Shown: piece after piece, positions 28,610 to 40,499 of the stretch
Position numbering within the stretch: position 1 is the first letter of the stretch
Layout: every line of letters starts with the position of its first letter
Source: Candidatus Marinacidobacterales bacterium
GTDB lineage: Bacteria; Acidobacteriota; Vicinamibacteria; Marinacidobacterales; DATDRI01
DNA length: 64,000 nucleotides
Assembly: GCA_965219415.1 (NCBI GenBank)
Contig: CBDCNP010000002.1
Location: forward strand, 352,001 to 416,000
Reading direction: 5' to 3'
Notes under the pieces: generated by a model
Seen by the model: the letters and a program-made list of their open reading frames with translations, nothing else
Database searches by the model: none
What the model was told of the DNA's origin: nothing
Position numbers and translations under genes: made by a program

Positions 28610-30796
28610 TCAGAACTCGGCCTGCAGAGTGATCACAGCGCTGATTCCAGGGGCCGGGACCGCCCGACTGTCCGCGCTCACGGGGTACGACTGGTCTAAG
28701 AGGTTCCGCACCCAAAGCCGGACAGAACCCCACGAATTGAACTTCCAACCCCCACCCAGATCCATGATGAAGTAAGAAGGTGTTGGCCGCTCCGTCGGCC
28801 CCGGATCGTTGTCGGCGGCGAACCATGCAACCCGGAGCAGTCCATACACTGTGTCGCCCATCTGCTTCCGCAACTGTCCTGTGATCCGCTCCGCGGGAAT
28901 GTCGTCCAAGGGCTCGTCGTCATCAAGGGCCACGCCGGTCTCGAATTGAGCTCCCAGCTCCAAAGTCAAGTCCGGTGTTAGATCCACTTGGGCTTCCCCT
29001 TCGATTCCTTGCAGTCGCGCTTTGCCACGATTGCGAAAGAAGAACAGCCCTTGCCCTTCTTCGAAGCGCTCCACGAGATCGTTGATATCGTATCGGTAGA
29101 AGAAAAACGCCCAGCGCAATTTCTCCCGTCCGTAACGTAACGCCACATCGAACTGTAGAGAAGTCTCCGGCTCGAGATCGGGATTTCCGAAGGCGGTTCC
29201 TCGCCCGGTGACTCCTTTGAAGTACCGATCAGAAAGAAAGGGATCTCGGAAGCCGCGCGAGACCTGCCCAGTCAAATGGAGTCGCGAAGCGAGCTCGATT
29301 CGAAGCGAGCCGTATCCGGAGACTGCGTCGTTGCTCGTCGATTGGTCGCCATAAAACCCGCCGCGATTGGCGCTGGTCAAATGGTCGAACCTCACCCCGC
29401 CCCAGGCGCTCACTCGCCTGCCGAGCATGATTTCCCCGTTCGCATAGACTGCGGTATCGGAGCGATTCGCGTTTTCGATGGCCGGCTGCTGCTCGCGTTG
29501 GAAACGGACCGCTTCTGAAGCATCGGTGATGACCTCCGAATCCAAGGCCTCGAGATCGAAGCGTCCGTTTACGTCGAAACCCAACTCCAGTCGGGATGGC
29601 CCCAGGGGACGTACGGCGAGGGCTCGAAAGCTGAAATCATTGGCCGACACATCCGCCCCGCTCACGCGCCGAAAACCGGAAGGCCGAAGCTGCTCATCAC
29701 GTTCGGTGATCAGTCGATAGCTCCCGAGAAATCCGTTGAAGTCGACGCGCGTGAAACCGGCCACCGGATCTAAATCGTATGAGACCGTGAGCCGATGCGA
29801 ATTCTCCTCGGGGTGCGAGATACGAACCGGTTCGGGATCTTCTCTTGGGCGACCGATGTCTCGGCCGAGATCACTTTGCCACCCCACCGAGAAGAGACCT
29901 GCGCCAACCTCCTGGGTCACTCGGGCGAGGAATCCTCCATCGCTTGCCGAAGAGTTCGGAACCGTTCCCTCGGAACTTCGGTAGTCGGTGAAATTGCGGT
30001 AGCGAGCCTGAAAGAGCAAGCCGCCCTCGCCGAAACCCTGTGATATTTCTGCGCCCATACTCCGCTCTGGAATTCCGGCTCCCAAGCTCCCACGCAGGCG
30101 AACGCGCAACGGTGCGCCCGATTCGGGACGTCGGGTGCGAGCGTCGATGACTCCCCCGAACGCATCCGACCCATAGGCGACCGAACCGGGGCCTCGCGAT
30201 ACTTCGGTACCCTCTAGGAAGAAAGGATCAAGATATGTGGCGCTGGGACCGGCCCGGCGCTCCGTCGACACGCGAGCCCCGTCGATCAGGACGAGCGTGC
30301 GCCCCCTGGCCAAACCGCGGATAACAGGAACCGCAGCGTGAAGGTCCGATACCTGGCCCACCCCAGGGACGTTCTCCAACACTTCGGTCAACCGGACCGG
30401 ATGGCGCTGAGCGATATCCTCCTTGGGCACGACGCTGGTGCCGCTCGCGGGGGGTGCCTCGATGTGGGGGGCCGCGCCGCTGGTAACAAGCACCGTCTCC
30501 GACACCAAGGGCGACACCGTAACGACAACAGGCCCGGCGTCGGGGATTTCCTCGATGAGGACGGGGGCCATGTACTGCCCACCTGGCATGACTACCAGGA
30601 TCTCGAAGGGAAGCGGCGGATCGGGGCTGCGAGAGAACCAACCTTCGTGATCGGTTCGGGTCGAACCCGGATGTCCAAGCACGGAGACTGTCGCGTCCCC
30701 CACCGGTGTTCCGTCCTGCAGCACGACCCGGCCTCTGAACGCGAAGGCCGGCGACGCACAAACTGCGACCCCCGCAACCAACCACCAGAACTTCAT
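28610..30796 (-). CDS. TonB-dependent outer membrane receptor
   Basis: Signal peptide MKFWW; plug motifs LENVPGV, IRG, RGPGSVAYGSDAFGG; GNPDLEPE; RNLLD; C-terminal Phe. Confidence 0.92.
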   Translation of the reverse strand: MKFWWLVAGVAVCASPAFAFRGRVVLQDGTPVGDATVSVLGHPGSTRTDHEGWFSRSPDPPLPFEILVVMPGGQYMAPVLIEEIPDAGPVVVTVSPLVSETVLVTSGAAPHIEAPPASGTSVVPKEDIAQRHPVRLTEVLENVPGVGQVSDLHAAVPVIRGLARGRTLVLIDGARVSTERRAGPSATYLDPFFLEGTEVSRGPGSVAYGSDAFGGVIDARTRRPESGAPLRVRLRGSLGAGIPERSMGAEISQGFGEGGLLFQARYRNFTDYRSSEGTVPNSSASDGGFLARVTQEVGAGLFSVGWQSDLGRDIGRPREDPEPVRISHPEENSHRLTVSYDLDPVAGFTRVDFNGFLGSYRLITERDEQLRPSGFRRVSGADVSANDFSFRALAVRPLGPSRLELGFDVNGRFDLEALDSEVITDASEAVRFQREQQPAIENANRSDTAVYANGEIMLGRRVSAWGGVRFDHLTSANRGGFYGDQSTSNDAVSGYGSLRIELASRLHLTGQVSRGFRDPFLSDRYFKGVTGRGTAFGNPDLEPETSLQFDVALRYGREKLRWAFFFYRYDINDLVERFEEGQGLFFFRNRGKARLQGIEGEAQVDLTPDLTLELGAQFETGVALDDDEPLDDIPAERITGQLRKQMGDTVYGLLRVAWFAADNDPGPTERPTPSYFIMDLGGGWKFNSWGSVRLWVRNLLDQSYPVSADSRAVPAPGISAVITLQAEF

Positions 30797-30957
30797 TTTG
30801 GACAGTATAGCTCGTCGTAGTACCTTGACATCACAAGCGATATGGCGTTTCATTAGGTTTGGGTAGACACTCCTCAAACACCGGGGACAGTACACGTAGC
30901 GGTCGCCGCTTTGGCGCAGCCGGGTCGACGAGGCCGACCTGGCGCGAGGGGGTACCG

Positions 30958-31515
30958 ATGGCAAGTTATGTCAACATGGATTCTTTTGCGGCTCGGCTGG
31001 AGAGCATGGCTGCCGCCGGTTTCGACACCGACGAAGTGCATGCTTACCTCAGCGACACGTTGATCGAGCCGTCTTCGCTCGACGCCTACGTGAGCTTCAA
31101 GTCGACTCGGTACGCCCGCAACCTGGTCCACAAGAGCAAAAGGTTCGAGATTCTCGTTGTTTGCTGGAAAGTTAGCCAAGGGGCACCGGTCCACGGACAT
31201 GAGGGAGAACGTTGTTGGGCCCGCGTGGAACGAGGCACGCTTCGTTTCGCAAACTTTCGGGAGGTATCGGAGAACCCTTTGATCGTAGAGGCATTAGGAG
31301 ACCCGGTCGACGGGGGCCCCGGGCACCTGGACGGTCCCGCCGATATCCACACCGTGGAAAACCCAGGCGACTCCGGGGAGGACGCTGCGAGTCTTCATGT
31401 GTACTCCTTCCCTTTCGACGAATGCGACATCTACGACCTGGCGCGAGGTGAGAAAAAACGAGTTCGGATGGAGTACGACACCATGTTCGGGAAATCCTTG
31501 GACCAGGCTCCCTGA
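30958..31515 (+). CDS. Cysteine dioxygenase type I family protein
   Basis: YARNLV, EILVVCW, APVHGH...CW, IHTVEN, SLHVYS. Confidence 0.85.
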   Translation: MASYVNMDSFAARLESMAAAGFDTDEVHAYLSDTLIEPSSLDAYVSFKSTRYARNLVHKSKRFEILVVCWKVSQGAPVHGHEGERCWARVERGTLRFANFREVSENPLIVEALGDPVDGGPGHLDGPADIHTVENPGDSGEDAASLHVYSFPFDECDIYDLARGEKKRVRMEYDTMFGKSLDQAP

Positions 31516-31528
31516 AAGGTTCGTGTAA

Positions 31529-33676
31529 TTGGTCGAGCTCAATCACCACGAACGCTACGTAAGGGCCAAAATCCTCTACTACGGTCCTGCCGCTGGTGGA
31601 AAAACCACTAGTCTTCAAGTTCTCCATGCGCGTGCGCATGGAAACCAGAAGATGGAGCTGATCTCGGTCAATACCGCGCAGGATCGGACGATTCTGTTTG
31701 ACCTCCTCCCTTTGCGGACCATCGCCTTCCGCAGCTACGAGCTTCGATTCCAAGTGATCGCCGTTCCGGGACAGCGTCTCTACTCCGCGACACGCAAAAT
31801 GCTTCTCAAGGGAGCGGACACCATCGTCTTTGTCGCTAATTCCGCTGCCGATCGCTTCCAAGAAAATCTACAAAGCCTCAATGAAATGACCGAGAACCTC
31901 TTGAGCCACGGAATCGATCCGTCTTCGTTACCGGTGGTCTTTCAATACAACAAGAGGGATCTCCCGGATACGACGGAGATCAAGACCTTGGATCGTGCCC
32001 TCAACGCTCGGAGCTCCGAGAGCTTCCCTTCCATCGCTATCGAAGAAGAGGGCGTCTTGGAGACGTTCGCCGCTGCACTTCGTCTCACGATGACCGAGCT
32101 TTCGACTCGATACAAGATCGGCGAGGACGTCCGTGGACCGCGCGCGGCGCGCGAATGGGCGGAGCGCGCCATGAAAGCGACCTTCAAGATGGCGCAACCG
32201 GCTCCAAAAGAAGAACCCGTACCCGCCCCCCCGAGGCTGGTGCTTCGTCAACGGCGGATCCAGCGTCAGCGACGGAACCACCACCCGCGACCGTGCTCCG
32301 GGTGCGAACGCCCTCATCGCCTCGGACCAAGCTCGGGTCCGCCCCGGCGGATCCGCCATCCACAGAGTCACCCGCGCCGTCCGCATCAGCCGAAGCTCAG
32401 GATCCCATGGCAGCCCAGGCACTCGTCAACAGCTACGCCGAGGCGGCAGCCGGACTCACCGACCATTTGGGCCGACTCCGCGAGGAGAGGGACGAGGCGA
32501 ACCGAAGGCTGGAAGAACTCTATGCCGTGGCCGACATTGGGCGCAGCCTACTTCATGCCTCGCGCGATCGAGCCAAAGTGTTGCTGGAGGGCGTGGTGAA
32601 GAAGATGTCGGAAATCTTCCGCACTTCGCAGGCTTCGCTATCCCTCATGCGACCGGACGGCGAGTTGGAGGTCGTCGTTCACCAAGGGATCGAAGACGAT
32701 CCTATTGTCTACGGAACTTCGTCCGAAGGTCATTCACTCGGCCCATCACTTCTGGAAGCTGGACAACTTCGCCTCGAGCTGCGCGGAGCGGCCGGTCCCC
32801 TCGGTGAAGCGATCGAGCGAGTCGGTTCGCAGTGTGTCGCGGTCCTGGTGCTTCCACTCCAGACACCGGCTCGCCCCATCGGGATGCTGGTTTTCTATCT
32901 CCCCGAGGAAGCGTCGATCCCGACCGAGTTCGAAATGGAGCACCTCGAGCGCTTGGCGCTCGGGCTGACGTTGACGCTGGAGGTCGCCTCCGAGGCAGTC
33001 TCGACCGACCGTTTGGAAACGATGACCAAAGCGGTGCTCGCCGGACAGCTTGCGCAGCATGTTTTTCGCTCCGCAGACGCGCCCATCGACCAAATCGTGT
33101 CCGCCCTTTATCGACTTCGCTCGCGCCCCGGTTCACCGGCATGGATCACCGACGGCCTCGGCCAGATGGAAGACACGATCTTCCAGCTCCAGAAATTGAG
33201 TCGGGGGGTGGCGGCATTCGGGGACGACGAGCTCCCTCCCGCCGACCGCGTCTCCTTGGAGGAGCTCCTCGGCGAAATCGAGGCTGACTTTCGCGTGCCA
33301 TTGGCCGAGGCGGGGATCACCTTTCAAATCGAGAACAAGGCCGGCGGTGCTTTCATGAAAGCGGAGCCAGTCCTGCTCCGCGCCCTCGTCGGGGGATTGG
33401 TAGAGAACGCTCGCCGGGATCACATCCGGAGGCATGATACGGGTGATCGCACAATTGTCCGACCGAACCGTGCGGCTCGCCATTTTCCATAACGCCGGCG
33501 CGTTGGTTGCTAGGAGAGCTCCCGCGCAAGCCCTGTCATGGCCGTTCGAACGGCGTCTATCCGACATCAACCTGAAGCTGGTCGAAACTATGGTCTCCTA
33601 TTTTCAAGGCGAGCTGACGACCGAAACCCGAGAGAAGGTCGGTACGATGACGACGCTGGCGCTACAAAGCGAGTGA
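31529..33676 (+). CDS. MglA-like small GTPase fused to GAF and degenerate histidine-kinase-like domains (2 frameshifts, ~32230 and ~33430)
   Basis: KILYYGPAAGGKTT, DRTILFD, VPGQ, QYNKRD; Pro/Ala linker; coiled coil; GAF (LPL...IGML); HK-like tail ending GTMTTLAL. Confidence 0.72.
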
Positions 33677-34846
33677 ACTAGGGGTCGGTCGAGGAAGTCG
33701 CGCGCGCCACCGATGCTCGGCCCGATCCCACCGCAAGACCTGAACCAGCCGGGACCATCCCCAAGCCATGACCTGGCACAATCGACGGAGATAAAACCAG
33801 CGAGTGGCACCGCCCGGAAACACTTCGCGCAGGACGTTGTGGCGAGGAAAAGTGAACTCCCACAAGTAGCCCAGCTTTCCGAGAGCCGAGGGGATCGAGA
33901 AAACCACCAAGAGCTCTCCCGTCGCCTCCGCAGCCCGCCTAGCCACGACCGCATCCACGAACTTGCATTCCATGCGATTCAGGCGCGGCAAAGAGACCCT
34001 TACTCCGGGTGGAATCTTCACCGAGAGCAGTTGCTCCATCGCCGAGACCGCATAGGCGACGGAACGCTGGGTCCCGGTTTTCTCGGCTTCGAGCAAGAGC
34101 TCTTCCCAGTCCAGCCGCCGGGAAACCAAGACTAAATCGACCAACCAGATGAGTCGGGAGAACGAGTGCTTCTGCGCGTGCACCGCGAGATGGAGAAACT
34201 GATGAGCGGGTGGCAGAGTCAGCAAGCTTTCGTCACCGGGATCCAAGGGCACCGCCTTGGCCCAGACCGCTTCGGCATCGAACCGAAACGCGAGAACCCG
34301 TCTGCGGATTCGAGACGCGTTGATGAGGTCGGTATGGAGGTCGAACATCACCGGCCCCTTCGTGAAAAGCGTCCCCGATGAGCCCGGGGAACGGAAGCCC
34401 CGCTGAAAGAGCGTATCCCGTACTCGGGGAAGGTCTATCTCTTTCACCAGGAGATCCAGGTCGCTCAAAGGGCGTAACCCCAGCTGGCCTCCGTAAGCGG
34501 TGGTGGTCAGCGCGTCGCCTTTGAGAAGAATGATCCGAAACCCTTCCTTCTGGAGAGCAGCACGAAGCGCAAGTAGCTCTGCGAAATGGCTTCCGTTGGA
34601 GACGAAAATCTCATGGAGCGCCTTGGAGAAAGGCTCCAAGGGAAGCTTCAAACCGTCGATTCTTGTGAGCTGCTCGAGCTGAAGCGCCAGCACACCGCTC
34701 ATGCCTTCTTGCCCCGCCAGCCCGAGCAGACCCGCCCAGTCCAAGGACGGACCGATGCATTCGAGAGCCTCCTCCTTCTCGGCGTTGCCGAGGAAGAGAC
34801 GCCCCGCGGCGAGGAGCAGGTCTAGCTCTGGGCTTCTAGCAACCAC
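33662..34846 (-). CDS. Nucleotidyltransferase family protein (NTP_transf_5-like)
   Basis: ILLKGDAL...Y...LRPLSDLDLLV, DLH, LHLAVHAQKH..SRLIWLVD. Confidence 0.85.
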   Translation of the reverse strand: MVARSPELDLLLAAGRLFLGNAEKEEALECIGPSLDWAGLLGLAGQEGMSGVLALQLEQLTRIDGLKLPLEPFSKALHEIFVSNGSHFAELLALRAALQKEGFRIILLKGDALTTTAYGGQLGLRPLSDLDLLVKEIDLPRVRDTLFQRGFRSPGSSGTLFTKGPVMFDLHTDLINASRIRRRVLAFRFDAEAVWAKAVPLDPGDESLLTLPPAHQFLHLAVHAQKHSFSRLIWLVDLVLVSRRLDWEELLLEAEKTGTQRSVAYAVSAMEQLLSVKIPPGVRVSLPRLNRMECKFVDAVVARRAAEATGELLVVFSIPSALGKLGYLWEFTFPRHNVLREVFPGGATRWFYLRRLCQVMAWGWSRLVQVLRWDRAEHRWRARLPRPTPSSLAL

Positions 34847-35372
34847 AATTGTTGGCAGCCTGACCCGGATTCATGCAGATGCCGTTGCAGCATCGCCACG
34901 TCGGGGTGCAGTCTCCGCCCGGGTTCGCGCACGGTGTACAGTCGGCGAGACCGGAACAGTTAGAATTCGGAATGCAGCTCTGGGCGTGTGCCGGAGTGGG
35001 TGCAACGATCGAGCTCACCACGGGTAGCATTACCGAGGCCGCGAGGCCGACTTTCTTCAACCGACGAATGAAGTCACGCCGAGAGTACGCCTCGATGAAC
35101 GCTTCGTCTTCCAGCAAGCCGACGCGCGCGAGGCGGCCCAAGGCATAGCGCACGACCTCTCGGTCGGCAGGTTCGTCGAGCTCACTCGCCAAGATGCGGG
35201 CCAACTGACTGACGGTCTTCTTGCCATCGCTCCGGCGCCATACGATCGCGGCGGCACGATTGAGACGATGCGCTCGATGGTTTCTCAAGTCATAGACCAG
35301 AACTTCGTCGAGAAGGTTCTGCACCGCTAGATCCTTTTTCCTCCGACGAGGTTTGTCGCGTCCTCTGCGCAT
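34836..35372 (-). CDS. PqqD/RRE domain fused to leader-like segment and Cys-rich peptide (putative RiPP precursor)
   Basis: LAVQNLLDEVLVYD...AHRLNRAAAIVW..SDG...L...GLL (PqqD-like); SRRDFIRR...LPVVSSIVAPTPAHAQS; 46-aa tail with 10 Cys. Confidence 0.8.
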   Translation of the reverse strand: MRRGRDKPRRRKKDLAVQNLLDEVLVYDLRNHRAHRLNRAAAIVWRRSDGKKTVSQLARILASELDEPADREVVRYALGRLARVGLLEDEAFIEAYSRRDFIRRLKKVGLAASVMLPVVSSIVAPTPAHAQSCIPNSNCSGLADCTPCANPGGDCTPTWRCCNGICMNPGQAANNCGC

Positions 35373-35389
35373 GTTCGCTCCTTGCCAAA

Positions 35390-36226
35390 CTAGGCGGCGC
35401 TATCGAACTCGGCCAGCATTTTCTCCAGTACCTCATCCACTTCGCCTCGCGCACCGATCAAGACCGGCGCCCGACGGACGGCGCGCTTCAACATCTCGAG
35501 CGCCCGTTGAGGCGCCAGGCGGGCCGAGGCGGTGTTGGCCAACAGCGCGAGCGCCGCTTGACCGGGAGATAGCGTCTGCGGACTCCAACTTGCTCCCGGC
35601 TTGTACTCACTCACAATGACCAGCCCGACGGGTAGCGGTGGCCCCCCGGCCGTCACACCCAGTTCCTCAACCAACCCAGATATGGAAGGCCTGTCCCCCT
35701 CGAGGGTCCCAGTTGGGTGGGGAAAAGCGTGTACGCGGCCGCGTGAATCGAAGACCGCATATTCGTGGGAGTAATACGTTGCGCCCGCCCTGACCAATCC
35801 GGCGACCAGAGTGCTCTTGCCGCTGAAGGTCTTGCCCGGCAAAACGATTGCCCGGCCGTGCCATCCGACCACCCCGGCGTGGACGAACACTCGTGTCTCC
35901 GAGGTTTCGGCAACAAAGAGCCGCATGTCCGACGCGAAAACCTGAAGTAGATCGTCGAGGTCCATCGTCCTCGAGATCCGTTCCGTATTGGCATAGAGAA
36001 GGTTGTACCAGCGGACCCGCTCGGGGGAGCCTGTTGCCTGGTTGGACCCCACCCGGAGCGAATACAAACGATCCACGACGCGGGATCTCGCCGGTTTCCA
36101 ACCAGGAGAGAGCAACGGCTCGAGACGCTCGAGCACTTCCGCTTGGTTGACGCGAATCCCTACACGAGTACCGTAGACTTGATAGGCGATCCCCGCTTCC
36201 CAACCCAACCGATCGAGCTCCTTCAT
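35390..36226 (-). CDS. HprK-related P-loop kinase
   Basis: FVHAGVVGWHGRAIVLPGKTFSGKSTLVAGLVRAGATYYSHEYAV; probable start MKELDRLGW at 36226 (ORF extends to 36361). Confidence 0.8.
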   Translation of the reverse strand: MKELDRLGWEAGIAYQVYGTRVGIRVNQAEVLERLEPLLSPGWKPARSRVVDRLYSLRVGSNQATGSPERVRWYNLLYANTERISRTMDLDDLLQVFASDMRLFVAETSETRVFVHAGVVGWHGRAIVLPGKTFSGKSTLVAGLVRAGATYYSHEYAVFDSRGRVHAFPHPTGTLEGDRPSISGLVEELGVTAGGPPLPVGLVIVSEYKPGASWSPQTLSPGQAALALLANTASARLAPQRALEMLKRAVRRAPVLIGARGEVDEVLEKMLAEFDSAA

Positions 36227-36510
36227 GGATGGCGAGCCACCGTCGAGCCGTGGCAGAAGCGAACGTGCCAAGCGATTCTCTCCCTGTTCGAGTTTAGACC
36301 CCGGCGCCTCGGAGACACAGTGTTCCCAGAGAGTCCGACGAAAACCCGTTGTGATGAACACTTAAATTTATCTGTTACTTGTATCAACAGGTTACCAAAA
36401 GTACTCGACCGAGGCAAGAACCGCCCACGCGCAGATCTCGTTTGCGCTAGCGACCGCCGCTATATAGCCTGGGCCGCACGAAAAAGGCGGTTTTACAGGA
36501 GTCAGGGGCA

Positions 36511-37278
36511 TTGGGTGTTCTCGAGGGAAAGCGGGCGCTCATCACAGGTGCGGCTTCCGGCATCGGAAAGGCCGCCGCACTTCTTTTCGCCAAGGAGGGC
36601 GCCGCGGTCTCGGTGACCGACCGGGATACGGCGGGTGGACTGGAGACGGTGCGAGAGATAGAGGGACAAGGGGGCCGGGGCCTTTTCGTTGCTGCCGATG
36701 TAACCCGCGCGGAAGACTGTGAAAGCGCTGTGCAGCAGACCGTCGCTTGGCTCGGAGGCCTGGATGTGCTCTTCAACAATGCCGGGATCATCATTCGCCG
36801 CTCGGTCGTGGAACTCGACGAGGCCGATTGGGACCGCGTGATGGCGGTCAACGTGAAATCTATCTTCCTTATGTCGAAGTATGCGATTCCGATTATGCAG
36901 GCGGGTGGCCAAGGCACCATTATTAATATGTCCTCCGGATGGGGCTTGGTGGGAGGCCCGAAGGCGGCCGCGTACTGTGCAAGCAAAGGAGCCGTCGTTC
37001 TCCTGACGAAGGCGATGGCCGTCGATTGTGGTCCGGACGGCATCCGCGTCAATTGTCTATGCCCGGGCGACACCGATACTCCATTGCTGCGAGTCGAGGC
37101 ACGTCAACTGGGAACGAACGAGCCGGAATTCCTGGTCGAAGCCGCGCGAAGGCCGCTCGGGCGCGTCGGTTCCCCGGAAGATATTGCACGTGCGGCACTC
37201 TTCCTCGCCAGTGACGCCTCGAGCTACGTGACCGGAACCACACTGGTCGTCGATGGCGGCGGCCTCGCCGCCGGCTAG
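36511..37278 (+). CDS. SDR family oxidoreductase
   Basis: TGAASGIG, NNAG, YCASK. Confidence 0.92.
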   Translation: MGVLEGKRALITGAASGIGKAAALLFAKEGAAVSVTDRDTAGGLETVREIEGQGGRGLFVAADVTRAEDCESAVQQTVAWLGGLDVLFNNAGIIIRRSVVELDEADWDRVMAVNVKSIFLMSKYAIPIMQAGGQGTIINMSSGWGLVGGPKAAAYCASKGAVVLLTKAMAVDCGPDGIRVNCLCPGDTDTPLLRVEARQLGTNEPEFLVEAARRPLGRVGSPEDIARAALFLASDASSYVTGTTLVVDGGGLAAG

Positions 37279-37293
37279 CTAAGAAGGAGGATT

Positions 37294-38091
37294 ATGATGA
37301 CAGTCAAACGATCTCTGTGGCTCTTCATGATGCTGGCCGGCTTTTCCTGCTCGCCACCTCCCGCAGCTCCACCCGAGCTGGAAATGCCCCGAGCCATCGT
37401 GGACCTGTCGCCCACTATAGGGGAGGACATGCCAACCAAGTCTCTCGGCGTCACGGCTCTCGAAGCCTTCGGTGTCCCGGTCACGACGACCTTCGAAGTC
37501 AAGGTCACCGAAGAGCCTTTCTATATCGCCGATGCCCTCATCACTTTGTTCAATCACGTGGGGCCCCATCATGATCCTCCCAGTCACCTCATAAAAGGGG
37601 GAGAGTCCGTAGATCAGGTTCCACTCGATCGGTTTTACGGTCCAGCTAAGTTTTTTGATTTTCGCTCCAAAGCAAAAGACGACCCCCTCCTTCCCTCGGA
37701 CTTCGAGAACCGCGGCATCGAAGCGGGCGACATCGTGCTCGTCTTCGTCGACTACGAGCAGCCCGCCGACGGGGAGCTCCCCTCCTACGCGTACTTGTCG
37801 GGAGACGCGGCCGAGTACCTTGCCAATGTCCCCATCAAGGCCTTCGCCTCGAACATGCCGAGCCTCGGAAACGTGAAGCGGTACTTCCAGTTGATCGAGG
37901 AGGGACGCACCGGCTCGGAGAACATTTTCCCCGAGCACTATGCGTTCTTGTCCCGCGACATCCCGAACATCGAGGGGTTGGCGAATTTGGAAAGCCTATT
38001 GGGAGAGGAGGAGATCGTCTTCGTCGGCTTTCCGTTAAAGATCAAAGACGGGAATGGCGCGCCCCTGCGCGCGGCGGCTCTCGTGTATTGA
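37294..38091 (+). CDS. Cyclase family (kynurenine formamidase-like) lipoprotein
   Basis: HVGPHHDPPSH, IEGLANL, PLKIKDGNGAPLRA; lipoprotein-like signal ending in Cys. Confidence 0.85.
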   Translation: MMTVKRSLWLFMMLAGFSCSPPPAAPPELEMPRAIVDLSPTIGEDMPTKSLGVTALEAFGVPVTTTFEVKVTEEPFYIADALITLFNHVGPHHDPPSHLIKGGESVDQVPLDRFYGPAKFFDFRSKAKDDPLLPSDFENRGIEAGDIVLVFVDYEQPADGELPSYAYLSGDAAEYLANVPIKAFASNMPSLGNVKRYFQLIEEGRTGSENIFPEHYAFLSRDIPNIEGLANLESLLGEEEIVFVGFPLKIKDGNGAPLRAAALVY

Positions 38092-38106
38092 TCAAGGAGA
38101 AAGACA

Positions 38107-39289
38107 ATGAGCTCACACGCTCGACTCACACTTCTTGTTGGATGGATTCTGGCGTCTCTAGCCGGAGTCGCGGCGCCTCTGGCGGCTCAGGAGTACTATC
38201 CCGCGGCCCACCCAATGGAAGATGCGGTCACCGGAGGAAGTCGGAATGGACTCAGCCCTGCTCGACGAAGCCGTCCGATTCATCAAGGCATCCGAGAATG
38301 AGAACCCTCGGGATCTCGGTGAGTACCTCACGGTCAGACTCACGAGCGAACCCCATAGCGAGATCGTCGGCCCGGTCAAAGAACGCGGCGACGTGAGCGG
38401 CGTCATTCTTCGTCACGGCTACATCGTTGCCGAGTGGGGTGACCCACAACGGGTGGATATGACCTTCAGCGTGACTAAGAGCTTCCTCTCGACGACCGTT
38501 GGGTTAGCCTACGACCGTGGTCTCATTCGAGACGTACAAGATCCCGTCCAAGAGTACGTTCCTCTGGAGCATTTCGACTCGGAGCACAACTCGAAGATCA
38601 CTTGGGACCACCTTCTGCGGCAGACGAGCGACTGGAAGGGAACGCTTTGGGGTAAGCCCGACTGGGCCGACCGTCCCGGCGACAACCCCGCGGAGTGGCT
38701 CACCCGAGCACGACACGAGCCGGGTACCGTCTACAAGTACAACGATGTCCGTGTGAACGTCCTGGCCTTGGCGGCGCTCGAAGTCTGGCGCCGACCTCTG
38801 CCGCAGGTTCTGAAGGAATACGTCATGGATCCCATAGGAGCCTCCAACACGTGGCGCTGGCACGGCTACGAGAACTCTTGGGTCACCATCGATGGATTGA
38901 AGATGCAATCCGCGAGCGGGGGCGGACACTGGGGCGGCGGCATGTTCATATCCGCCCGCGACCAAGCTCGGTTCGGTTACTTCACGCTGCGGCGTGGCAA
39001 ATGGAAGGGCCAACAACTCCTCTCGGAAGAATGGTTCGACATGGCAACCACGCCTACCAAGGCCCGGCCAGGCTATGGCTTCATGAACTTCTTTCTCAAC
39101 ACCGATCGAGAGATGCTACCGAGCGCCCCGGAAAACGCCTTCTGTCACTTGGGCTCGGGGACAAACATGGTTTGTGTGCTTCCGGACCAGGACTTGGTGG
39201 TCGTGGCGCGCTGGATCAAGAGGGATATCGAGGACGGCATCATTCAAAGGGTGCTGGCTTCCCTCAAGCCATCATCGACGACGAACTGA
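38107..39289 (+). CDS. Serine hydrolase, beta-lactamase family (frameshift ~38215)
   Basis: SVTKS (SxxK), HLL.QTS, YND, ARFG; signal peptide in upstream frame. Confidence 0.85.
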
Positions 39290-39293
39290 GGGA

Positions 39294-40499
39294 CTACCGG
39301 CGGCGGTTCCGAGTCGGGAACTTCTGGAATTTCTGGGTAGCGGCGATTTCGTTCAAGCCCTCGCGGACGAGCGATTCGATATCCGAACTCGGCTTCAAAT
39401 CGAGCGCATCCATTAGGTGCTGGTAGGCGGCGGTCGGCTCTCGGAAGGCGTGAAGCTGCAGGAGACCGGCATAGGCGTGGGCCTCAGCCGCGCCCTTATC
39501 CGCCGGATAGTCGCGAAGATGGCGCTGGTAGATAGTGAGCGCGGCCTTGGCGTGCCCGTTCCTCGCAAGCCAATTCCCCAGCGAGATCGAATCATCCGGA
39601 TCCAAGAGACGGCGAGTCGCGTTGGACGGTAGCTCGAAGTAGAGTTTCCCTGCCTCTTCGAACCTCTGTTCTCGAATCGCGTCGGCGACCTTTTTCCGAA
39701 TGGGCGGTGCCTCCGCTGCCGGTGCCCGTCGAGCGCGAAACTCTTCCGGTCGCGAGCGGACCTCGCGAAGACCGGCGATCCATGCCACCAACACTCCCGC
39801 TAAGAAACCCCCGATGTGCGCACCATGCGCCACACCGCCACCGCCACCTCGTGAGATCAGAAAGGGGAAGATATTCTCGAGTACGAGATAGACCCCCAGC
39901 ACCAGGCGCGAACGCAATAGCATCGTTTGCATGATGAACGGAAAAAAGAAAATGAAGACCCGCACTTTGTTGTGAGGAAACCATAGGAAGTAGAAACCGA
40001 GCACTCCGGAAATGGCTCCCGATGCCCCCACCAGCGGAAGCGGTGACCGGCCGGAGAACATTCCGTAGAACAGAGTCGCCGCGACACCGGTGGCCAAGTA
40101 CCAAAAGAGATACTTGAAGGATCCCAGTCGGTGCTCCACGTTGTCTCCATAAATCCACAGGAACAGCATGTTTCCGAAGAGATGAATGAAGCCGCCGTGG
40201 AGGAACATCGCGGTGAAGAGGGTGACCAGAGAAGGGTCTATGCTTCGAAAGCCCCATGAGAAGACAACCAGGTCGTAGGCTGATATTTGTTGAATCACCT
40301 GGGACGGTGAGACGCCCGGCGGCAGGCTTTCACTCACCGCGTTCACATACTCCTGCACGCGCGGATCCTGCGGGTCGGCGGCATTGAAACTGAGTGGCAA
40401 CGAGATGAGAACGTAGACCGCGACGTTCATCGCAATGAGAGCGTAGTTTACGTACGGAACGCCTTGGGGATTAGGCTCATCTCCTAGTGGCAAGAACAT
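39294..40499 (-). CDS. Rhomboid intramembrane serine protease with C-terminal TPR-like region
   Basis: FLHGG..HLFGNM, GASGA, AHIGGF. Confidence 0.92.
   Translation of the reverse strand: MFLPLGDEPNPQGVPYVNYALIAMNVAVYVLISLPLSFNAADPQDPRVQEYVNAVSESLPPGVSPSQVIQQISAYDLVVFSWGFRSIDPSLVTLFTAMFLHGGFIHLFGNMLFLWIYGDNVEHRLGSFKYLFWYLATGVAATLFYGMFSGRSPLPLVGASGAISGVLGFYFLWFPHNKVRVFIFFFPFIMQTMLLRSRLVLGVYLVLENIFPFLISRGGGGGVAHGAHIGGFLAGVLVAWIAGLREVRSRPEEFRARRAPAAEAPPIRKKVADAIREQRFEEAGKLYFELPSNATRRLLDPDDSISLGNWLARNGHAKAALTIYQRHLRDYPADKGAAEAHAYAGLLQLHAFREPTAAYQHLMDALDLKPSSDIESLVREGLNEIAATQKFQKFPTRNRRR

Follow-up and report, generated by a model that had tools for sequence, protein, structure and literature searches.

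Which product would be made by a three-gene unit in which a gene for a kinase-like protein and a gene for a nucleotidyltransferase-fold enzyme enclose a gene for a small protein that joins a peptide-recognition domain to a cysteine-rich tail? We addressed this question for the genes that we call K, M and N, which lie on the minus strand of a 64,000-nucleotide stretch of DNA from Candidatus Marinacidobacterales bacterium (GenBank assembly GCA_965219415.1, contig CBDCNP010000002.1, positions 352,001 to 416,000). The whole of this stretch is called the window below, and positions are counted from its first letter. We found that M, the middle protein, has a conserved leader followed by a variable tail, that Cys residues come in even numbers in nearly all tails, that the three genes are linked across phyla, that K and N keep their catalytic residues, and that the system also occurs in split forms. 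The reading that we favour, at a probability of roughly 0.55, is that K, M and N are a self-contained module for making an exported disulfide-rich peptide, that M is a precursor with a two-part leader, and that K and N act on M before export. On this reading, K-M-N is a set of tailoring enzymes of the type found with peptides that are made by the ribosome and modified post-translationally (RiPPs), with a new precursor architecture and export route, and it is widespread in soil-type bacteria.

Architecture of M

M matches the PqqD family PF05402 over residues 23-86 with 31.2 bits (Pfam gathering cut-off 23.4, E 2.8e-7), which agrees with an earlier reading of the window from its letters alone (the sequence-only reading) that had placed a PqqD-like domain here. 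An AlphaFold2 (AF2) model of M, built on 61 sequences and with a mean predicted local distance difference test score (pLDDT) of 85.6, has the fold of a RiPP recognition element (RRE): three strands (residues 15-19, 24-28 and 33-37) are followed by three helices (39-47, 54-65 and 71-83), all at pLDDT 91-97. When we compared the model with PDB structures by Foldseek, the nearest fold was that of TbiB1 with leader (5v1v_A; target template modelling (TM) score 0.75, E 3.8e-3), and a further near fold was that of a lasso B1 protein with leader (6jx3_B; target TM 0.78, E 4e-2). Leader-bound lasso B1 proteins are the structures that the modelled RRE of M resembles most. The most conserved positions of the domain in the M family are A34, L37 and N38 on strand 3 and V74, A77 and L81 on helix 3, which we take to be the groove where RREs bind leaders. 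Among NCBIfam models the top match of M is ScmD, with 21.1 bits (under the cut-off of 100), and this model matches 58 of 61 M family members at E <= 0.1. The model for PqqD_rel_X, the PqqD chaperone of HPr-rel-A systems (TIGR04353), gives 18.7 bits with M, under its cut-off of 35, and matches 42 of the 61 proteins at the same threshold.

The segment after the PqqD domain is YSRRDFIRRLKKVGLAASVMLPVVSSIVAPTPAHA, followed by QSC..., and it contains SRRDFIR...AHA. The sequence-only reading had called this segment leader-like. That it is a conserved leader is upheld by our alignment, and its nature has to be corrected: judged by its residues, it is a twin-arginine-type signal, with the pattern S-R-R-x-h-h-K/R, a short Pro-containing hydrophobic stretch and an A-x-A end. 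The alignment holds 150 M sequences, namely the M of the window and 149 representatives that are mutually no more than about 50% identical. In these sequences R98 is present in 150/150 and R99 in 149/150, position 97 holds Ser or Thr in 88%, the residues at 101 are V, L or M, those at 105 I, V or L and those at 106 R or K; the family consensus around the arginine pair is S/T-R-R-x-[VLMF]-[IVL]-[RK]. Farther along the segment we found G109 in 134/150, P117 and P125 at 99%, Ser or Thr at position 121 in 93% and A130 in 93%. In the AF2 model residues 98-108 form a helix and residues 119-122 a four-residue strand, and the hydrophobic stretch is not a membrane-spanning helix. TatC, of the twin-arginine translocation (Tat) system, is encoded in this genome.

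These features also bear on a different reading, in which M is an uncleaved single-pass membrane sensor or adaptor with a cytoplasmic PqqD domain and a variable Cys-rich outer domain, and K and N serve it in the cytoplasm as enzymes of signalling or as effectors. The hydrophobic segment lies inside the protein, after a folded domain of ~95 residues, as it does in type II membrane proteins or anti-sigma factors, and the outer part varies, in the manner of some receptor domains. However, the stretch is short, has two prolines at 99% and closes with a small-x-small end in which A130 is at 93%, which are the marks of a cleavable signal, and the AF2 model has no long helix there. Tandem arrays of M genes with differing tails, and a domain-free peptide of 48 amino acids with an RR leader (both described below), fit a product better than a receptor. 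We therefore consider a membrane sensor quite unlikely.

On the favoured reading, in which M is a precursor, the part of M behind the A-x-A is the presumed product. The C-terminus of M is a 46-residue peptide with 10 Cys that contains DCTP twice and NPG twice and has CGC as its last residues, and it is exactly the peptide that the sequence-only reading had quoted. To compare tails across the family we parsed them by regular expression in 106 of the best 149 representatives, the other 43 being left out solely because they did not parse. The tails are 16-102 residues long (median 44), have a Cys content of 16.3% and carry an even number of Cys in 102/106 cases, most commonly 6 (43 tails), 8 (24) or 10 (13). 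The spacing C-x3-7-C-x3-8-CC-x1-7-C-x1-13-C is present in 39/106 tails. Mean pairwise identity, measured on 600 random pairs from the 106 representatives, is 50% in the segment from the arginine pair to the A-x-A and falls to 43% for the PqqD domain and to 23% for the tail; homologues of M thus keep the RRE and the leader and carry a hypervariable Cys-rich tail, as had been proposed. Near the start of the tail, Ser or Thr at position 132 (+2 after the A-x-A) is found in 93% and C133 in 71% of the 150 aligned sequences. At the other end, Ser is the final residue in 7/106 tails, and the tail of the window ends in Cys.

The 10-Cys tail of the window has one Pfam match, a weak one to Stig1 (0.095), and a search of the tail against PDB sequences gave rows at chance level only and no relative. 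Six-Cys tails match the knottin families UPF0506, Conotoxin_I2 and Tryp_inh weakly, all under the Pfam cut-offs. Tat commonly carries cofactor proteins, and given how rich in Cys the tails are, one could suppose that the tail takes up a metal or an iron-sulfur cluster while in the cytoplasm and leaves through Tat in folded form, with K and N serving cofactor loading or having no direct role on the peptide. The hypervariable length and Cys spacing argue against one cofactor site, the even Cys numbers and the C-C-CC-C-C spacing point to disulfides, and two of the parsed loci, L065 (21 residues) and L067 (collagen-like), have tails that are free of Cys; a cofactor-binding tail is very unlikely.

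Two M-type proteins have unusual C-terminal parts. The protein encoded at L067:5890-7086 carries behind its leader a 242-residue collagen-like GPTG repeat with no Cys, and K and N are encoded there on the other strand. Cargo of the leader is therefore not always Cys-rich. In the second protein (P0289, 338 aa) the Cys-rich region is followed by a further ~140 C-terminal residues; this part begins with C-V-L-Y-D-T, ends near S-H-N and looks, by eye, like a Hint/intein-like domain.

Linkage and distribution of K, M and N

The listing of open reading frames (ORFs) gives three frames on the minus strand, 35390-36361, 34836-35372 and 33662-34846, for K, M and N. K and M are separated by a gap of 17 bp (35373-35389), and M and N overlap by 11 bp (34836-34846). 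The longest ORF of K corresponds to 323 aa; we place its start at the ATG at 36226, because an alignment with 23 homologues begins at MKELDRLGW, the first residues encoded from that ATG. Both the ORFs and this start confirm the earlier description of three tightly coupled minus-strand genes at 33662-36226 (Table 1). The three genes are not chance ORFs, because each has many homologues and their order is kept in other genomes.

Table 1. Features of the K-M-N unit, in positions of the window.
Feature	Positions	Strand	Description
K	35390..36226	-	278-aa P-loop protein of HprK/PEPCK fold, kinase-like, outside all curated families
M	34836..35372	-	178-aa precursor-like protein: PqqD/RRE domain, twin-arginine-type signal and Cys-rich tail
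PqqD/RRE domain of M	35109..35339	-	Residues ~12-88; PF05402 match and AF2 fold
Twin-arginine-type signal/leader of M	34983..35087	-	Residues 96-130: YSRRDFIRRLKKVGLAASVMLPVVSSIVAPTPAHA
Variable Cys-rich tail of M	34839..34982	-	Residues 131-178: QS and the 46-residue peptide with 10 Cys; presumed mature secreted peptide
N	33662..34846	-	394-aa NTP_transf_5 nucleotidyltransferase-fold enzyme, GTG start
Shine-Dalgarno AAGGAG	35378..35383	-	5 nt ahead of the M ATG; read from the sequence

To quantify the linkage, we built hidden Markov models (HMMs) of K, M and N from the collected loci and scored them on 39 loci chosen for a match to M, together with the window (n = 40). Several of these loci are cut by contig ends, and the counts are not independent because several loci come from the same genome or from close kin. 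K, M and N are all present in 23/40 loci, M and K only in 5/40, M and N only in 3/40, and M alone in 9/40. Where all three genes are present, they stand nearly always in the order K, M, N on one strand, so that the synteny with a kinase-like gene and an NTP_transf_5 gene is conserved, in line with the sequence-only reading. According to the record titles, K-M-N loci are found in Acidobacteriota (Vicinamibacteria, Pyrinomonadaceae and Thermoanaerobaculia), Methylomirabilota/Rokubacteria and Gemmatimonadota. Among 401 sampled genomes of the phylum, M (E <= 1e-24) is present in 31, and K (E <= 1e-20) is present in all 31 of those; in total K is found in 36 of the 401 genomes and is absent from 365.

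It would be possible to regard K, M and N as mere neighbours without a shared function, given that the flanking genes vary by locus and that PF14907, the family of N, is common in the phylum. However, translational coupling through the short gap and the overlap, an order that is kept in 23/40 loci of three phyla, and the presence of K in every genome with M while 365/401 genomes lack K speak against chance adjacency; linkage and co-occurrence already contradict it, and we consider it extremely unlikely.

Beyond K and N, we found no neighbour that is common to all M loci, and no dedicated transporter or peptidase is conserved beside K-M-N. Two loci (L050:8876-11778 and L051:1674-3745) hold tandem arrays of three M genes with differing Cys-rich tails and no adjoining K or N; the genomes with such orphan M arrays have a single K elsewhere (G346:C25 and G386:C2). 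In another set of loci (L041:588-11537, L042, L043, L044, L049 and L052) the triad closes a sugar/glycan cluster with epimerases, GT1 and GT4, in which a Glycos_transf_4 gene lies directly before K, and TsaD-like and GNAT genes come after K-M-N. As those genomes are kin, this position may reflect inheritance, not function. In a different group of loci, TPR, Wzy_C and peptidase C25 genes surround the triad.

The family is large. When we searched the M profile among 1.84 billion representatives, we found 2557 family representatives at E <= 1e-30, with 6436 matches at E <= 1e-10 and 11930 at E <= 1e-3, the weaker of which will include ordinary PqqD proteins. At least 2772 relatives of K were found at E <= 1e-5 among the 8000 candidates scored, and the 120 relatives that were listed are unnamed or called "hypothetical protein" in their sources.

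Some loci carry the components in split form. At L084:6539-9310 we found, in this order, a free 90-aa PqqD gene, a small ORF with an RR leader and a K-like gene; a PF14907 gene lies beside them on the other strand. The last 48 residues of the small ORF begin with M-A-E-K-K-R-T-R-R-E-V-L-K, continue with a hydrophobic stretch and P-S-K-A-Q-T, and end in a short Cys-free tail, and the K-like gene gives 76.5 bits with TIGR04352, the model for HprK-related kinase A, which is still below the cut-off. Nine loci have a K-like protein of this type: a free PqqD gene lies directly upstream of it in 4/9, N is beside it in 5/9, and a regular expression for small ORFs with an RR leader finds one directly upstream on the same strand in 3/9 (L087, L090 and L092). 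The same expression also gave four obviously spurious Arg-rich matches, and 3/9 is thus suggestive and not a statistic. As far as the sequences go, these loci suggest that an RR-type leader accompanies the PqqD and K pair, fused or separate, as expected if the pair recognises that segment. PF14907 genes also lie near free PqqD genes at L086:7960-8500 and L085:7005-7540, and at L086 the PqqD match is followed by a radical-SAM-like protein with CxxxCxxC. We rejected L085 and L086 as forms of K-M-N, since the PqqD and NTP_transf_5 proteins there belong to other systems.

K and N and the predicted course of maturation

K had no Pfam family match. Its best curated match is TIGR04352 (E 2.2e-12), with 46.7 bits against a cut-off of 200 and over residues 135-215 only; the same model gives 44.2 bits in the genome search, and HprK_rel_B gives 17.2 bits (cut-off 200). 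When we compared the K family profile with the PDB, it matched HprK 1ko7 (E 0.1) over the H-x-G...GxxGKS/T...DD/DE region, and the top Foldseek hits of an AF2 model of K (pLDDT 88.9) are HprK/P 1kkl_B (E 3e-4, target TM 0.52) and PEPCK. The motifs in the window read FVHAGVVGW...PGKTFSGKST...YYSHEY, that is, an H-x-G, a Walker A motif of the form GxxGxGKS/T and then the place of an acidic pair. In the alignment with the 23 homologues H116, G136-K137 and G148 are invariant and S153-D154-E155 nearly so; at position 154 the K of the window carries H. We class K as a P-loop protein of the HprK/PEPCK type. The earlier assignment of K as an HprK-related kinase holds for this fold, and it does not hold for family membership, as K lies outside HprK_rel_A and HprK_rel_B. 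PF27840, the ScmC family, is carried by a few K homologues and, in a nearby ESM Atlas cluster, by 14% of the proteins. The same genome carries a second K-like gene outside the window (L075:1330-2007; G000:C3:541385-542125), a copy of 225 aa that lacks the N-terminal ~35 residues and an internal stretch (model positions 196-222), has no adjoining M or N, and is probably a decaying duplicate.

N matches PF14907 with 137.8 bits (cut-off 31.2, E 6.1e-40), and the nucleotidyltransferase assignment of the sequence-only reading stands. Of the profiles that had been named for a check of the three proteins, PF05402 and PF14907 are thus over their cut-offs and TIGR04352 and TIGR04353 are under theirs. 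Among 20 N proteins encoded beside M genes, G110, R125, D129, D131, D169-L-H171, H223 and D237 are invariant, and the DxD motif (D129-x-D131) of N is intact. Two subfamilies of N share ~20% identity, yet the nucleotidyltransferase signature of G110, D129-x-D131 and D169 is invariant in them. We found no match between N and PDB sequences.

The favoured reading can be put as a sequence of predicted steps. M would be the precursor; the first part of its leader, the N-terminal PqqD/RRE domain, would stay in the cytoplasm, and the second part would be the twin-arginine-type signal peptide that ends in A-x-A. As a statement on architecture, the proposal of a precursor with a recognition element of its own holds, because of the PqqD hit, the conserved leader with its variable tail, the synteny and the lack of lasso enzymes. 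The RRE domain would hold the conserved leader segment, or dock K, and K and N would act on M in the cytoplasm. By analogy with PsmK and PsmN of a lasso-peptide cluster, K might phosphorylate a conserved Ser or Thr, and N might then transfer a hexosyl or nucleotidyl group onto the phosphate; we put this order of phosphate first and hexose or nucleotide second forward tentatively, as a possible but somewhat doubtful part of the scheme. Three positions are candidate sites: S/T132 (+2 in the mature peptide), S/T121 within the hydrophobic stretch and S/T97 adjacent to the arginine pair. We favour S/T132 because, apart from the first Cys, no other residue of the presumed mature peptide is conserved. 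M would be exported post-translationally, most likely via Tat, and cut after A128-H-A130 by signal peptidase, and the 48-residue tail would form five disulfides outside the cytoplasm. It is the twin-arginine-type signal with its A-x-A that makes export, and oxidation outside the cytoplasm, most likely for the peptide. Small hydrophilic peptides without structure can pass through Tat, so that a modified tail could be exported while still reduced.

A more specific version of this scheme, which we regard as speculative and rather unlikely, is that the RRE clamps the Tat signal of its own protein and releases it once K and N have placed a phosphate-linked hexose or nucleotide on the Ser or Thr by the first Cys. 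If this were true, the modification would be an export checkpoint, and the pathway would represent a new class among those for ribosomal peptides, whose products, knottin-like bacterial peptides with phosphoglycosylation, would make up a very large and hypervariable family.

A rival explanation gives K and N a different task, that of gating export. Here the fused RRE would bind the signal segment of its own protein as a built-in Tat proofreading chaperone, reversible phosphorylation of S/T97 or S/T121, with further capping by N, would set the moment at which the translocase receives the peptide, and the mature peptide would bear disulfides only. Of the three conserved Ser/Thr positions, the signal contains two (S/T97, 88%; S/T121, 93%), and the signal is the most conserved region of M, at 50% identity, which is unusual for a plain signal peptide. 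The conserved PqqD positions on strand 3 and helix 3 fall where we presume the leader groove of RREs to be, and AF2 gives residues 119-122 as a short strand and not a helix. However, docking in cis is a conjecture, S/T132 in the mature part is equally conserved (93%), and no precedent is known to us or was found in the literature searched. The characterised relatives of the enzymes, in the available portions of the papers that describe them, modify the product itself (PMC6993621, PMC8498205). Taken together, these points make export gating an improbable explanation.

Returning to the favoured reading of a tailored, exported peptide, several results weigh against it. Modification, cleavage and export of M are predictions from architecture and analogy. 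The Tat-like signal starts at residue 96, internal and behind a folded domain, and it is the best-conserved region of the protein, two points that speak against a plain Tat signal. M matches TIGR01409 (TAT_signal_seq) over residues 97-130 with E 0.044 and 14.2 bits, below the cut-off of 16.7; TIGR01409 matches 10/61 and formate_TAT 12/61 members of the M family at E <= 0.1, and 49 to 51 of the 61 members are without a Tat HMM match at this threshold. K is under every curated family cut-off. In the PqqD domain C36 is present in 135/150 and C48 in 145/150 relatives of M, and in the M of the window they are replaced by R and S. In 17/40 loci, some of which are cut by contig ends, M lacks one or both enzymes as neighbours. 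When we searched the 3.5-kb M loci by tblastn with the N of the window, we found a match only at the window's own locus, and PF14907 is present in 242/401 sampled genomes of the phylum. The kinases of lasso clusters target a C-terminal Ser and the tails rarely end in Ser, so that the target residue in M must differ. PsmN, the one characterised relative of N in the literature read, is needed for the addition of hexose, and not of a nucleotide, to a phosphate (PMC6993621, in the available portion), and a core that is phosphorylated and then nucleotidylated, as the sequence-only reading had it, is conjecture.

Some of these points have further context. The genes downstream of M at other loci are distant PF14907 proteins that are recognised by Pfam and HMM only, and we therefore rejected the lack of N synteny that the tblastn search had indicated. 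PF14907 is not specific to the K-M-N module, because at 242/401 genomes it is too common for a test of co-occurrence; this tally and one of 158/401 take in an unpublished genome (G152), and all other claims are independent of that genome. As for the Cys pair of the PqqD domain (M residues 36-48, window 35227-35267), close relatives of the M of the window have lost one or the other Cys. A complex prediction for K and M scored 0.74 and one control with an unrelated partner scored 0.60, and we used this result neither for nor against binding.

Comparison with known systems and neighbouring genes

Among the closest known systems are the clusters of phosphorylated and phosphoglycosylated lasso peptides (paeninodin with PadeK, pseudomycoidin with PsmK and PsmN), in which an HprK-like kinase, a protein of NTP_transf_5 type and a PqqD/RRE protein likewise occur together, and K-M-N would work like the tailoring part of such clusters. 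In the available portions of the two reports, the enzymes of these clusters have a ribosomal precursor as substrate, and the transferase works on the phosphate (PMC6993621, PMC8498205). PsmK phosphorylates a Ser, and PsmN is needed for the addition of one or two hexoses (+162 Da) on the phosphate, in the portion of that report available (PMC6993621); the HprK homologue of a lasso cluster phosphorylates the C-terminal Ser on the linear precursor, according to the available part of the other (PMC8498205). Unlike the lasso clusters, K-M-N has its RRE fused to the precursor, a twin-arginine-type leader, a Cys-rich, non-lariat product and no conserved C-terminal Ser. In the whole genome no lasso B2 peptidase is over the cut-off; PF13471 reaches 22 bits on contig C1, which is not the contig of K-M-N, and the sole match of the genome to PF00733 (Asn_synthase), the family in which a lasso cyclase would be sought, is also on C1. 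We rejected a lasso system, as there is no adjoining cyclase or B2 peptidase and no C-terminal Ser.

Two further systems share family models with K-M-N. The uncharacterised HPr-rel-A systems (TIGR04352 and TIGR04353) likewise pair an HprK-like protein with a PqqD protein, a likeness to which the split loci of this phylum add, where PqqD is encoded by a gene of its own immediately upstream of the K-like gene and N lies in the vicinity. They differ from K-M-N in that K and M are far under the cut-offs of the two models (46.7 vs 200 bits and 18.7 vs 35) and in that the PqqD domain of M is fused to a signal and a tail. SynChlorMet ScmC/ScmD (TIGR04248; PF27840) is linked to K-M-N through ScmD, the top NCBIfam match of M, and through the ScmC family carried by some K homologues. 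The SynChlorMet cassette includes radical SAM enzymes; no radical SAM enzyme is found among the scanned neighbours of K-M-N, and M reaches only 21.1 of the 100 bits of the ScmD cut-off.

Other likenesses concern parts of M. The precursors of NHLP, Nif11 and proteusin type have a conserved, domain-like leader of ~80-130 residues and a short, hypervariable, often Cys-rich core, with several precursors per enzyme set, and M shares this logic of a long leader and a variable core. NHLP and Nif11 leaders are not RREs and have a Gly-Gly site that is cut by a transporter-linked peptidase; the leader of M is instead an RRE with a Tat-type signal that ends in A-x-A. Tat signals that have proofreading chaperones (TorD, DmsD and NapD) share with M the S/T-R-R-x-h-h-K pattern, a weakly hydrophobic stretch and A-x-A. 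TorD and NapD are cytoplasmic peptide-binding proteins tied to Tat signals. In contrast to this type, the signal of M is internal, and the binding domain has a PqqD fold and is fused in cis. Knottins share the C-C-CC-C-C spacing with 39/106 tails; the matches to Pfam knottin families are below cut-off, and the tail of the window has 10 Cys.

RiPP biology places the recognition element on an enzyme or on a free helper protein. In M it sits on the substrate, ahead of an export signal, and this arrangement would, if the favoured reading is true, link cytoplasmic tailoring to Tat or Sec export, a link that is not described in the literature searched. The K-M-N family is large, and Acidobacteriota, Methylomirabilota and Gemmatimonadota are phyla with few characterised natural products. 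The tails form a natural library of small disulfide-rich peptides, with a knottin-like spacing that is frequent here and rare in bacteria. The three-gene module also offers a simple system for pairs of HprK-like and NTP_transf_5 proteins outside lasso clusters, and hence for systems of the HPr-rel-A type. We found no description of the K-M-N architecture in the literature searched; the supplements of RRE surveys, which list RRE fusions, may hold it. The terms kinase, nucleotidyltransferase and Acidobacteri do not occur in the available portions of the main text of the RRE-Finder paper and of the 2025 paper on RRE structures (PMC7470986, PMC12710340).

The K-M-N unit is bordered upstream by a divergent gene for a short-chain dehydrogenase and downstream by a convergent ORF. 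We scanned eight flanking proteins (28610-40499) and found a TonB-dependent receptor, a cysteine-dioxygenase-like protein, a dehydrogenase, a cyclase, a beta-lactamase-fold protein, a rhomboid protein and two ORFs without a family. None of the eight is a peptide-maturation enzyme, and there is no lasso cyclase, lasso (leader) peptidase, radical SAM or YcaO enzyme among them, just as the sequence-only reading had noticed. PADLOC models gave no match to K, M or N at E <= 0.01, and we rejected an anti-phage defence reading of the unit on this ground. At 31529-33492 the window has two long, overlapping ORFs of 356 and 445 aa on the plus strand, which are without a Pfam match at E <= 1e-4; the first of the two starts with a P-loop-like GPAAGGKTT.

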